From: Desulfobacterales bacterium
GTDB lineage: Bacteria > Desulfobacterota > Desulfobacteria > Desulfobacterales > UBA5616
Direction of reading: 5' to 3'
NCBI GenBank assembly: GCA_046483495.1
Contig: JAWODC010000074.1
Span: 32,001 to 96,000, forward strand
DNA: 64,000 bases
Shown: positions 4,446 through 56,246 of the stretch, piece by piece
How positions within the stretch are numbered: position 1 is the first letter of the stretch
How the letters are laid out: each line of letters opens with the position of its first letter
Program-made: the position numbers and the translations under genes
Notes under the pieces: generated by a model
The model's input: the letters and a program-made list of their open reading frames with translations, nothing else
Database searches by the model: none
Told to the model about the DNA's origin: nothing

Positions 4446-5222
4446 ATGAAATCCGTTATCTATGAAGTAAAAGACAAAATCGCAACGATTACCATCAACC
4501 GGCCGGAAGCACTGAACGCCTGCGATATGGCCACTTACGAACGCCTTGGAAAAGCATGGCGGGATTTTCGGGACGACGATGATGCATGGGTTGCCATTAT
4601 CACCGGTATGGGAGAAAAGGCCTTTTGCGCCGGAAGCGATATCAAGCAGAATTTCTCGGAGGTCCCTCATCCGTCGGAAGCATTCGATCCCGCTGCAAAA
4701 GATACCCTGACCCATGGATTGGAGATTTTCAAACCGATCATTGCCGCCATAAACGGCCATTGCAACGGCGGTGGCTTGGAATTGGCCTTGGCATGCGATA
4801 TCCGTGTCGCCGCCGATAATGCCCGGTTCGGCCTGGGTGAGGTAAAACTGGGCCTATTGCCGGGCGGCGGCGGTACCCAAAGGCTTCCCAGGGCCGTTAG
4901 CCTGTGCAATGCGCTTTGGCTTCTGTACACCGGAGAACGCATCGATGCACAAGAGGCTTACCGCATCGGTTTGGTCAACCGGGTGGTGCCGCTGCCGGAG
5001 CTCATGTCAACGGCGGCATCCATGGCGAAAAAAATTTTGGCGGCCGGCCCCCTGGCGGTTCGTGCGATAAAGCAGGCCGCAATAAAAGGACTGAATATGC
5101 CGTTGGAAGACGGGTTGCGTCTGGAGCAGAATCTTTTCCGCATGCTTCGCCTGACCGAAGACAGTCGGGAAGGCACTCGTGCGTTTGCCGAAAAGCGCGA
5201 ACCGATATGGAAGGCGCGCTGA
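4446..5222 (+). CDS. Enoyl-CoA hydratase/isomerase (crotonase family)
   Basis: TINRPEALNA, AFCAGSD, GGGLELALACD, EVKLGLLPGGGGTQRLPR; both catalytic Glu present. Confidence 0.95.
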   Translation: MKSVIYEVKDKIATITINRPEALNACDMATYERLGKAWRDFRDDDDAWVAIITGMGEKAFCAGSDIKQNFSEVPHPSEAFDPAAKDTLTHGLEIFKPIIAAINGHCNGGGLELALACDIRVAADNARFGLGEVKLGLLPGGGGTQRLPRAVSLCNALWLLYTGERIDAQEAYRIGLVNRVVPLPELMSTAASMAKKILAAGPLAVRAIKQAAIKGLNMPLEDGLRLEQNLFRMLRLTEDSREGTRAFAEKREPIWKAR

Positions 5223-5233
5223 ACACAATAGTT

Positions 5234-5377
5234 AGTGGCCATCCAGAAATAGGCTATTTCGAGTGAGTTCAAGGCGGGCGCAAGATCGAAACCACAGAAA
5301 TAGTGTGCTATTTTTAGGATTTCGGTTTTGCGTCCAACGCAGAAATCGCGTGAAAGAGCCATTTCTGGATGGGCACT
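5234..5377 (+). repeat. ~145-bp multi-stem hairpin repeat (MITE/REPIN-like), intact copy 1
   Basis: Terminal inverted arms AGTGGCCATCCAGAAATAGGCT / AGCCATTTCTGGATGGGCACT; inner 16-bp stem 5276-5291/5320-5335; homologous to 42246-42390. Confidence 0.85.
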
Positions 5378-5793
5378 CATCTGCTTAAACGCAGTATCGC
5401 CAGTATTTCCTCCTTGCTGAACAAGGTCCCCTTCCCGATGCCGGGACATTCTTTTTCAACCTGCCGCCATGTCAACTCGGACCGCAGGTTCTCGAACCAG
5501 AACGGAAATGTTCGACATTGAACCGGACGGACAGGATATATCCGGCATCCATTTTCGTAAAACAGACATCGCCCCCGGTCATCTTCACGGACGGAATAGG
5601 CATCCCGGTAAGGGTAGAGGTATCGTTCAATCACATGCAAAATGGGGGTGTGCAGAAAATCGGAGATGCTTTTAATCTCATTGTTTCCAACATAAACGGT
5701 GCCGGGTTCGCCGGCACAGCATTTACCGCATTGTAGGCAGGCAAACCGAATTCCCTCATCGAAAAAGTAGTGTCGCTTAAACAGGGCTTCCAT
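5377..5793 (-). CDS. YkgJ-family cysteine-cluster (CxxCxxCC) protein
   Basis: FACLQCGKCC, CLFY, CRIYPVRPVQCRTFPFW, CPGIG. Confidence 0.9.
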   Translation of the reverse strand: MEALFKRHYFFDEGIRFACLQCGKCCAGEPGTVYVGNNEIKSISDFLHTPILHVIERYLYPYRDAYSVREDDRGRCLFYENGCRIYPVRPVQCRTFPFWFENLRSELTWRQVEKECPGIGKGTLFSKEEILAILRLSR

Positions 5794-25708: not shown

Positions 25709-25723
25709 CGAAAAAAATACAGT

Positions 25724-25764
25724 CCCATCCGGAAATGCGAAAATTCACGCCGTTTCCGGATGGG
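25724..25764 (+). repeat. Internally deleted copy of the hairpin repeat (outer stem only)
   Basis: CCCATCCGGAAATG-N13-CGTTTCCGGATGGG, matching the terminal arms of the long copies. Confidence 0.7.
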
Positions 25765-25770
25765 CGCCTT

Positions 25771-40431: not shown

Positions 40432-42021
40432 TCAGGCCTTTTTGACCTCGGCTATCTCTCCCGGGCTGGGAACGAATACGGAAAACCCGTTTTCCGAGAG
40501 GAAATCTGCAAAGGACAACGCCTGGTCTTCTTCACCATGCACCAGCGCGATCCGCTTCACGTTAAGATTGGACTCCTTCAAGAACCGCAGCATGTCATTT
40601 TTATCGCCGTGGGCGCTGAACCCCCCCAATTTTCTCACACGGGCCCTTAACGGATATTCCTTATTGAGAAACCTGAGAATGGGCGGGCTTCCGTTTCGGC
40701 CGGATCTTTCATATTCCGTGCCCTGTTCGAGAATCCGTCTTCCCAGGGTGTTTTGGGCCATATACCCCACGATCAGAATCGTATGGCGTTCGTTGTGTAT
40801 TTTATACCGCAGGTGATGGAGCACCCTGCCGGCCTCACACATCCCCGATGCGGCAATCACGATATGGGGCTTTTCTTCCCGGTTTAGTGCCATGGATTCT
40901 TCGACCGAACCAATGTATCGAATTTCCTTGAAAACAAAGGGGTTCTTTTTCTGCTGAAGAAAGGTCTCATGGGTTTCCCTGTCGTAGATTTCGGGATGCT
41001 CGCCGAACACCGTCGTTAAATTGGTCGCAAGCGGACTGTCAACGTAAACCGGAAGCCTGGGAACAACGCCTTCGTTGTATAATTCATGCAGGACATAGAG
41101 AAGCTCCTGGGTCCTTCCAAAAGCGAATGAAGGAATGATAATCGATCCGCCACGTTCGACCGTCTCATTGATCATTTCGGCGAATGCCGGTTTCAGAGCA
41201 CCTACCGGCTCATGGACCCTGTTGCCGTAAGTGCTCTCTAAGATCAGCAAATCCAAATCCCGATCCGGCTCTTCAAAATCACGGTTTGGGTCCCGAATAA
41301 TCGGCTTATCGAATCTTCCGATATCACCGCTGTAGCCGATCTTGAACTCATGCCCGTTTTCATTGATCCGGAGAATGGAAAAAGCCGATCCAAGGATATG
41401 GCCGGCTTCATAAAAGGTAAGAGAAGCACCCTTTCCGATGGTGACCGGATAGCGATAGGGAATGCCTTCAAAATATCCAAGTGATTTTTCAGCATCGGCA
41501 ACCGTATAAATAGGCTCAACCTTTTCCAGGCGGTACTTGGAAATCATTTTGTTGATGATGTCCGTGTTCAACCGGTGCCCTTCACGCTTGAGTTTTTTCT
41601 TGAGTTTGTCATTTTCTTTCTTTTCGCCCTTTGACAAGCCCGAATCGGACTGTATCCGATTCAGGGCGGTCCTCAGGGTCTTGTAGTTAAGATAATCGGC
41701 ATCGGATTCCTGTATGTAGGCGGCATCCATCAGCAAATACGATGAGACATCCTCTGTAGCCCTGGTGCAGTAAATCCTTCCAAAGAACCGTTCCGATCGT
41801 ATCAGCATGGGGATGCGGCCGGAATGATCGATGTGACCATGGGACAACACGACATTGGTAATGATCTTCGGATCGAACGGCAGGACCCTGTTCTTTTCGG
41901 TCGATTCTTTCCGCTTTCCCTGAAACATTCCGCAATCCAGCAGAACTCTGTTTGGGCCGCTGCATACCATGTGCATGGACCCGGTGACTTCACGAACCGC
42001 TCCAATAAAAACCACCTCCAT
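40432..42021 (-). CDS. MBL/beta-CASP metallo-hydrolase (RNA-processing type)
   Basis: GAVREVTGS, DCGMFQG, SHGHIDHSG, AGHILGSA, ESTYG, FAFGRTQE, FSAH, VHGE; start near GGAGG (42021/42024/42027). Confidence 0.93.
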   Translation of the reverse strand: MEVVFIGAVREVTGSMHMVCSGPNRVLLDCGMFQGKRKESTEKNRVLPFDPKIITNVVLSHGHIDHSGRIPMLIRSERFFGRIYCTRATEDVSSYLLMDAAYIQESDADYLNYKTLRTALNRIQSDSGLSKGEKKENDKLKKKLKREGHRLNTDIINKMISKYRLEKVEPIYTVADAEKSLGYFEGIPYRYPVTIGKGASLTFYEAGHILGSAFSILRINENGHEFKIGYSGDIGRFDKPIIRDPNRDFEEPDRDLDLLILESTYGNRVHEPVGALKPAFAEMINETVERGGSIIIPSFAFGRTQELLYVLHELYNEGVVPRLPVYVDSPLATNLTTVFGEHPEIYDRETHETFLQQKKNPFVFKEIRYIGSVEESMALNREEKPHIVIAASGMCEAGRVLHHLRYKIHNERHTILIVGYMAQNTLGRRILEQGTEYERSGRNGSPPILRFLNKEYPLRARVRKLGGFSAHGDKNDMLRFLKESNLNVKRIALVHGEEDQALSFADFLSENGFSVFVPSPGEIAEVKKA

Positions 42022-42245
42022 CATCATCCTCCATTTGCGTGTCGATTTCCTGTCCCTCAGTTCCGCCAATCCGGGACAAGGGATGTTCACCGATTCTGAA
42101 GACTTGCCGGAAAAACGGTGAGAATTCGGAGAAAACGTTTCTGGCATTCGGCGAATGCGATACACCCCGATTGCATTCGATTTTCACCCGGCATATGCAG
42201 GTGAAACAATTCGGCGCAAAACGTGTACTCAACATCGCACTTATC

Positions 42246-42390
42246 GGTGTCCATCCGGAAATGAGAACATTCGATTCCGTTCAAGACGGCCGGGAAATTT
42301 TAACCGCGGGTTTACATTGAGTATTTTGAGGATTAAAATTACCCGGCCAACGCCGAAATGGAGCGAATCAGCCATTTCTGGATGGGCTCT
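42246..42390 (+). repeat. ~145-bp multi-stem hairpin repeat, intact copy 2
   Basis: GGTGTCCATCCGGAAATG...GTTCAAGAC...GAGGA...CAACGCCGAAAT...CATTTCTGGATGGGCTCT; inner stem 42288-42303/42333-42348. Confidence 0.85.
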
Positions 42391-42535
42391 ATTTAGAATC
42401 TCTCCCTATAACAATTGCCTGATACACCTGTCAACATTGCGGAACGGCAAACGAAGGCTACCGTTTTCAACCGGCACCAGGCCTCATGGAAAGGTTATTT
42501 TTTTACCGGACATCCCGTTGATTTTATGGTAGAAG

Positions 42536-42568
42536 AAAAAAGCCGGGCGGTCCGGCGGCGGCTTTTTT
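42536..42568. terminator. Bidirectional intrinsic terminator-like hairpin
   Basis: AAAAAAGCCG-N13-CGGCTTTTTT. Confidence 0.55.
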
Positions 42569-42612
42569 GCATGCAGGCGGTTGATCAATTGAAAGAACTC
42601 TCGGGAAGGGAT

Positions 42613-42918
42613 ATGAACAGAAGAAGATTCAACAGCATCGCTTTTTTTTGGCTTATCACGGGATTTTCCGTGTTTTCCGCCTATATCGCCTATATCGCCG
42701 GTGGAATCGCTCTTGAATCCAAAGAAGGGACCCTGCTTTTTGGATTTTTATTGCTGTTGTACCTGTGCTGGTTCATTTACGATTCCTTCGTGGATATCAC
42801 CGCATCCCTAAAAGATTCCGTCACCTTGAATCTAACCCGCAATCCCGCGGTGTGGGCCATGTACTGCTACTGGATTGCTTTTCTGATCCTGCCGATCGTG
42901 TACGGTTTAGTCACCTGA
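42613..42918 (+). CDS. Small hypothetical membrane protein (3 TM)
   Basis: MNRRRF then three hydrophobic segments; GGAAGGG upstream. Confidence 0.7.
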   Translation: MNRRRFNSIAFFWLITGFSVFSAYIAYIAGGIALESKEGTLLFGFLLLLYLCWFIYDSFVDITASLKDSVTLNLTRNPAVWAMYCYWIAFLILPIVYGLVT

Positions 42919-56187: not shown

Positions 56188-56246
56188 AGGGGGATTTTAC
56201 GGTCAACGCATCGATGGTGTGAACTATCCATTTCTCAATGGGCACT
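56188..56246 (+). repeat. 3'-half remnant of the hairpin repeat
   Basis: CAACGC-N18-CCATTTCTCAATGGGCACT, same spacing as copy 2 (CAACGC-N18-CCATTTCTGGATGGGCTCT). Confidence 0.6.

Follow-up and report, generated by a model that had tools for sequence, protein, structure and literature searches.

The region analysed here, referred to as the window, is a stretch of 64,000 nucleotides from a Desulfobacterales genome and contains two copies of a short, non-coding element (Table 1). Copy 1 separates an enoyl-CoA hydratase gene (4446-5222, + strand) from a convergent reading frame for a Cys-rich protein of 138 aa (5377-5793, - strand). Copy 2 lies between two divergent frames, a beta-CASP/MBL gene (40432-42165, -) and an ORF at 42415-42918 (+). 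Both copies have the architecture proposed in an initial annotation of this DNA and fold into the rod that it described; the positions given there were right apart from one flanking base too many on each side. The stop codon of the Cys-rich reading frame consists of the three bases directly adjoining copy 1. This frame is conserved in two relatives, G001 and G002, and the homologue in G001 extends further. The 46-bp palindrome in the window is likely an internal deletion relic of the same family. From position 1376 (+) there is a family-type left end, and the degenerate interior next to it has the apical right-arm motif; this site was missed by the profiles and is probably an old relic of the element.

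Table 1. Copies, relics and structural parts of the element in the window (model R1 is described in the text).
Feature	Position	Strand	Remarks
MITE copy 1, subfamily a	5235-5376	+	142 bp, GTG..CAC ends
Copy 1, left terminal inverted repeat, ISNCY type	5235-5250	+	
Copy 1, right terminal inverted repeat	5361-5376	+	
ERIC-type core of copy 1	5268-5344	+	87.6 bits (model R1)
Copy 1 core, asymmetric loop	5271-5275 / 5336-5341	+	closing stem TTC/GAA
Copy 1 core, 16-bp stem	5276-5291 / 5320-5335	+	
Copy 1 core, apical module with G-U pair and TA/TA hairpin	5292-5319	+	
MITE copy 2, subfamily b	42247-42389	+	143 bp, GTG..CAC ends
ERIC-type core of copy 2	42280-42357	+	85.6 bits (model R1)
Copy 2 core, loop	42283-42287 / 42349-42354	+	one G>A change
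Third copy, degenerate right half	56193-56245	+	profile positions 91-143, 23 bits
46-bp palindrome with family-type ends, no core	25722-25767	not assigned	sequence read directly

The element is abundant. An iterated profile gave 249 matches in the 4.19-Mb assembly, 148 of them near full length, and family-specific profiles assigned near-full copies to the subfamilies a (37), b (99) and c (15), all three with GTG..CAC ends. The terminal inverted repeats (TIRs) are 16 bp long. Among the 64 copies with both ends exact, 11 are flanked by an exact 6-bp target duplication, where mismatched pairings predict 0.5, and 22 by a duplication within one mismatch (3.8 expected); the other lengths tested from 2 to 10 bp gave no comparable excess. 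The duplication is missing at both window copies, the flanks of copy 1 showing 4 mismatches. Flanks that differ by at least three mismatches occur in 33 of the 64 copies, copy 1 included. They may reflect recombination between copies or shifted duplications, and they are counted against the model favoured below, which leaves them unexplained. In young GTG-ended copies with mismatched flanks, each flank resembles the target consensus and not its partner.

BLAST detected the element in 14 of 40 relatives; it is absent from the same-genus genome G001. Very similar GTG-ended elements in named genomes were, among the matches listed, all from Desulfobacterales. A search for an empty orthologous site in contigs of four or five runs gave no joint skipping the element at the two stretches covered. 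The element is missing from both G001 and G002, which are not syntenic here.

The transposase that could act on these ends was sought in this genome and in relatives. The assembly, which is 96.7% complete, contains no ISNCY gene according to the NF033593 profile, the cut-off of which was exceeded in 7 of the 41 genomes that were searched. Two of the 12 scanned ISNCY loci (L019 and L036) contain complete elements of 1835 and 1820 bp, with nearly the same GTG-type terminal repeats as the MITE and exact 6-bp duplications. These autonomous elements, which we take to be the ISDol1 group, thus share with the MITE the terminal 16 bp and a 6-bp TA..TA-like duplication, whereas they are about 1.8 kb long, encode a transposase of about 500 aa (NCBIfam NF033593) and lack the core. 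No core was present in the terminal 260 bp of L019 and L036, nor did the pattern find one in the ISNCY loci, so the MITE is not a simple internal deletion of such elements. Passages of PMC8147514 list ISDol1 as an ISNCY subfamily. The initial annotation's proposal of a non-autonomous element moved in trans is supported by the TIRs, the 6-bp duplication and the ISNCY ends found in relatives. We are confident that the element is a MITE combining ISNCY ends with an ERIC-type core.

Other resident transposases were considered as well. The only DDE_Tnp_1 match of the assembly is an intact IS1634 transposase (L001 868-2502, contig C25); it was rejected as the resident mobiliser when no GTG-type end was found in the IS1634 locus. 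Profiles for DUF772, ISNCY, IS5_3 and IS1182 gave no match in this genome at the thresholds used, and the search for a resident mobiliser listed thirteen long TIR pairs. At the start of contig C83 (1-20), a family-type end is preceded by sequence unlike the MITE subfamilies; it may mark the tip of an autonomous element that was not assembled.

The core is a one-strand rod composed of an asymmetric loop (AAGGC/AACGCA), a stem of about 16 bp and an apical TA-hairpin. RNA folding gave z scores of -11.5 for copy 1 and -7.1 for copy 2, and none of 200 shuffled sequences was equally stable. The + strand folds better than the - strand, with -75.3 versus -56.3 kcal/mol for copy 1 and -63.1 versus -52.8 kcal/mol for copy 2. 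With DNA parameters the same strand is favoured in both window copies, and the + strand also folds better in the consensus sequences of all five subfamilies examined. The initial annotation regarded the conserved motifs as unpaired, which is correct for the loop AAGGC/AACGCM, but TTC/GAA pairs and closes this loop. It rightly reported that the inner left arms of the two copies are identical at 9 of 16 positions and that six pairs changed on both sides; the inner stem of copy 2, read from the sequence, has one A-A mismatch. Its statement that structure is conserved rather than sequence applies between subfamilies and fails within them, as relatives of copy 1 in the genome are 85-92% identical. 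The six double changes therefore amount to a single comparison of two master lineages.

The same core is found inside other ends, a point absent from the initial annotation. A search of this genome with the interior pattern revealed two further core-bearing families, d (21 copies) and e (17 copies), which have IS5-type ends and are flanked by TA on either side in 14 of 19 copies of d and 9 of 11 of e. Their ends differ from those of autonomous IS5-family elements (28 IS5 loci from the same order) by 1-2 mismatches in 17 bases. A model, R1, was built from 17 cores that include no ERIC sequence; subfamily c was excluded since it was misaligned, yet R1 still scores its copies at 47-58 bits. R1 matches occur in 21 of 151 genomes of the phylum, this genome included, where the cores are associated with additional end types and, judged by eye, with what look like duplications of 4 and 5 bp. 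Cores that are closest in sequence often differ in their ends. A GTG-ended core in G039 is 83% identical to a core with GAGACC ends in G028 and 66-73% identical to cores a and b; a core with IS5 ends in G007 is 79% identical to a GTG-ended core and 60% to the d core. Pairs across end types reach 83%, 79% and 79%, against 60-73% within end types. For the GAGACC and GGGTG end types no partner IS was identified.

One locus among 18 IS1182 loci, L372 1720-1944 (G208, contig C75), contains a core MITE with tips identical to those of the IS1182 right end. TCGA adjoins this MITE on each side, and beyond it lies an IS1182 right end on one side and an inverted IS1182 right end on the other. It is possible that this is an intermediate of end capture, or that IS1182 targets its own ends; the locus is at a contig end, where an assembly artefact is also possible. 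Other arrangements were noted as well. A Peptostreptococcales MAG (L207 47-416) has tandem cores with repeated arms, an arrangement that resembles a clustered repeat more than a single MITE. In three loci of Bacillus relatives (L122, L187, L192) a different short palindromic repeat interrupts one arm of the core-bearing element or takes its place.

The distribution of the core across bacteria was examined with an exact pattern that specified the loop only, applied to one genome per species; a loose pattern scan gave mostly noise. The exact pattern gave at least 125 matches in at least 122 loci. Of the 125 matches listed, 118 are 73-78 nt long within an allowed range of 69-89, and the apical module, which was not part of the search, is present in 101, versus 13.7 after shuffling. 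Some matches are chance hits, such as two Mycobacterium rows. The record titles among the matches listed, some of which may be wrong in the case of MAG labels, include Desulfobacterota, Enterobacterales, Bacillus relatives, clostridia, Bacteroidota, Arcobacteraceae, Pseudobdellovibrionaceae, Patescibacteria, Phycisphaeraceae, Balneolaceae and Gallionella. In named genomes the core occurs, again among the matches listed, in about ten phyla. A phage origin was considered and rejected: a looser pattern gave 120 matches in viral contigs with a flat length spread and a single weak pass, and because of this flat spread the viral scan serves as a chance control.

R1 recovered 48 of the 54 loci given to it; the six that were missed include one from a Bacillus relative and four enterobacterial ERICs, which places ERIC copies at the edge of the model. 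In the 48 recovered cores, double-sided changes occur in 32 of 34 pairs and the covariation score is 0.616, compared with at most 0.115 when slid, values to be read in view of the fact that the core alignment (A5) was fitted to the structure and that the loop pattern picked more than half of its rows. In an unfitted alignment all 43 rows keep the apical T-A and A-T pairs without change, and the adjoining pairs co-vary. Within the loop a co-change from C-A to A-G is seen in 4 of 48 rows, probably a single lineage. Resemblances to integron attC sites, to the SRP helix-8 loop, to K-turns and to single-strand promoters were dismissed, as the bases that these require are not conserved in the core alignment. 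The constraint on fold and loop agrees with the earlier suggestion that selection acts on a strand-specific fold with a sequence-specific internal loop.

A strand-specific fold with G-U and non-canonical co-variation could indicate an RNA route, in which the rod is cut from transcripts, a reverse transcriptase (RT) binds the core and copies it, and a DDE transposase integrates the DNA. This scenario would also suit the many copies without a resident transposase and the presence of one group II intron-like RT in this genome. Against it, RT genes were found in 11 of the 21 genomes with a core and in 6 of the 20 without one (P 0.21), and G104 and G134, with 24 and 19 model matches, have no detected RT. 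Of the 162 ORFs neighbouring cores, 150 were scanned; no Pfam family exceeds 3 members, and the 25 most frequent families contain no transposase, RT or HUH enzyme; no RT family recurs. We consider the RNA route quite improbable. The RT of this genome, the only one found, appears intact with 466 aa (L389 1689-3089, contig C58).

Alternatively, the core could be a separate mobile unit, nested in DDE ends and recognised as single-stranded DNA by an HUH enzyme of the RAYT or IS200 type. REPINs, the palindromes mobilised by RAYTs, resemble the MITE in being non-autonomous and intergenic and in keeping structure over sequence. A hairpin with fixed mismatches and an invariant TA/TA fits such recognition, as do cores that occur in tandem or without clear TIRs (L076, L207) and a weak replication-strand bias (78:52 and 99:68, P 0.02-0.03, with P 0.02 for the latter), which resides in the ISNCY-ended families. 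The genomic distribution speaks otherwise: Y1_Tnp is present in 15 of 21 core-positive and 14 of 20 core-negative genomes (P 1.0), neither of the two Y1 genes of this genome has a core beside it, and no HUH family recurs among the neighbours mentioned above. Unlike REPINs, the MITE has DDE-type TIRs and duplications, these duplications track the outer DDE ends, and linkage to a Y1 transposase is absent. Recognition by an HUH enzyme is thus very unlikely, and the REPIN/RAYT option of the initial annotation is not upheld.

Comparison with known repeats provides a different link. ERIC (also IRU or RU-1) is, like the MITE, an intergenic, multicopy, non-coding repeat that folds on one strand into a rod, with the apical TA-hairpin at a similar distance. 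The conserved central inverted repeat of ERIC is present in the MITE as the loop motifs and the apical hairpin. In Escherichia coli K-12 the single R1 match is a 127-bp element between hsdR and hsdM (E 0.55, 19.7 bits), which is not significant by itself. The loop motifs TCAAGGCGG and CCAACGCAGA are identical in this hsdR-hsdM copy and in MITE copy 1. An ERIC-like copy between rpsB and tsf has similar motifs, yet was missed by R1. A sequence-only model, R2, gave 10 E. coli sites; it contains ERIC rows and its matches are therefore not counted as evidence. The published ERIC consensus, as tabulated in PMC2759123 (Table 1a), shows the loop and hairpin motifs on its reverse strand. Overall identity is about 52-54% between MITE and ERIC cores, and only 42-56% between the cores and E. 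coli. The differences lie in the ends and in the hosts: ERIC has TA ends, a TA duplication (as described in a passage of PMC2759123) and a length of about 127 bp, the MITE has GTG..CAC ends, a 6-bp duplication and a length of 142-143 bp, and ERIC occurs in Enterobacteriaceae and Vibrionaceae whereas the MITE host belongs to another phylum. Passages of reviews confine ERIC to enterobacteria and vibrios.

Correia elements (NEMIS) of Neisseria show a comparable order. On the reverse strand of the 107-bp form reproduced in the supplement of PMC2229807, CAAGGCG, CCGCAG, a TAC-loop-GTA hairpin and CAACGC follow each other, as compared by eye. By the same visual comparison with PMC2229807, Correia differs from the MITE in a much shorter inner stem, TA ends and a 24-bp TIR; a fixed spacing of the modules is therefore not universal. 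The long form carries an IHF site according to a passage of the same paper. The comparison with Rfam called for in the initial annotation gave no match in the window, the best having an E value of 1 around copy 1. The Rfam family RF02818 (V_AS5), a Vibrio antisense RNA, does match the ERIC copies L060 1482-1605 and L099 1480-1603 with 44.9 and 32.3 bits (E 1.4e-6 and 0.0046), below the gathering score, which makes it probable that this sRNA family is an ERIC repeat; the V_AS5 model gave no match to the window copies. The initial annotation could not assign the element to a named family, which is half wrong, as the ends are of the ISNCY type and the centre matches ERIC and Correia. In the parts of PMC3184786, PMC10969869, PMC11602168 and PMC2267715 that concern them, ERIC, Correia and other MITEs are handled as separate families. 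A literature search of partial coverage found no paper uniting them by a shared core, and an earlier mention is possible.

The question of where selection acts was addressed through the decay of inserted copies. Private substitutions per 1000 in subfamilies a, c, d and e are 18-20 for motifs, 23 for stems and 27 for TIRs; motifs and stems do not differ significantly (P 0.45-0.62), and the shared-versus-private test for the motifs was below significance. Single private changes produce G-T and A-C with nearly equal frequency (178:156). The 124 elements that have a GTG-type end on either side include 22 shorter than 130 bp, and a junction, located at a short direct repeat, is shared by only three of these 22 derivatives. 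Short core-less relics might be immobile simply because their ends are too close.

The core could be kept by host selection, for example if RNA in read-through transcripts steers processing by RNase III or RNase E or renders the insertion harmless. Passages of reviews report effects of both RNases for ERIC and Correia (PMC3184786, PMC10969869), the sRNA model V_AS5 matches ERIC copies below its cut-off, and only 12 of 189 near-full copies lie inside crude ORF calls, the copies being mostly intergenic. Yet with the same crude ORF calls the orientation of copies is unbiased, both in co-directional gene gaps (46:37, P 0.38) and near gene 3' ends (40:48, P 0.46), and the private changes are as frequent in motifs as in stems, with G-T and A-C in the proportion given above. 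Host selection is unlikely on this evidence. With copies that decay neutrally and have no orientation to genes, the notion of a multicopy functional RNA of the host, raised in the initial annotation, is not supported.

The neutral decay would equally be expected if the core were a functionless remnant of one old MITE whose stems are kept paired by hairpin self-repair through template switching. Private compensatory double changes at paired sites are indeed in excess (6 versus 1.75 expected, P 0.008), but non-compensatory doubles are equally in excess (8 versus 2.9) and there is thus no specific sign of templated repair. A first hint of templated arm repair, 74 compensatory versus 16 other double cells, failed to hold in a stricter test. 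Moreover, repair would erase the mismatched loops, whereas loops and TA/TA are the same from phylum to phylum and the neighbouring pairs and the ends change. A functionless core has, in our judgement, a low probability. Inserted copies look neutral and the motifs are fixed across families and phyla, which makes selection during multiplication the simplest reading; from this contrast between and within families we consider it likely that selection acts on the masters.

In view of the above, we lean towards a mechanism in which an ISNCY transposase mobilises the element in trans and the folded strand of the core is a docking module that a general host protein reads. In this mechanism an ISNCY-family transposase would cut and paste the MITE by means of its 16-bp ends. 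The folded core, as an RNA transcript or as single-stranded DNA, would be the docking site for the host protein while the element multiplies, the protein reading two conserved modules located about 16 bp apart on one strand. New subfamilies would be founded only by masters with an intact module. An IS that inserts directly beside a core-bearing element, on the left as well as on the right, could give rise to a new end type if the IS tips are retained.

An ISNCY-ended MITE by itself is ordinary. What is new here are the ISNCY and IS5 partners, the decay tests and the copy abutted by IS1182. In passages of PMC11602168 and PMC10969869, the MITEs of prokaryotes appear as ISs with an internal deletion, for the most part specific to a genus, and PMC2759123 in part describes ERIC as an enterobacterial and vibrio repeat with unexplained mobilisation. 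A broader reading, which we put forward tentatively and hold to be somewhat short of probable, is that ERIC, Correia and hundreds of unnamed MITEs form one superfamily defined by an ancient folded single-strand module. This module would be a portable chassis that captures the tips of active ISs (ISNCY, IS5, IS1182, TA-targeting and others) and, for its multiplication, enlists a host factor that is conserved across phyla. If this reading is true, many MITEs would be born by end capture and not by IS deletion, and the usual MITE model would be inverted, with an old, conserved interior and exchangeable ends. The conserved centre of ERIC would gain a testable role, for which this genome would be a good test case, as it has five subfamilies with transposases of two types, partner ISs that are identified and a defined set of invariant bases.
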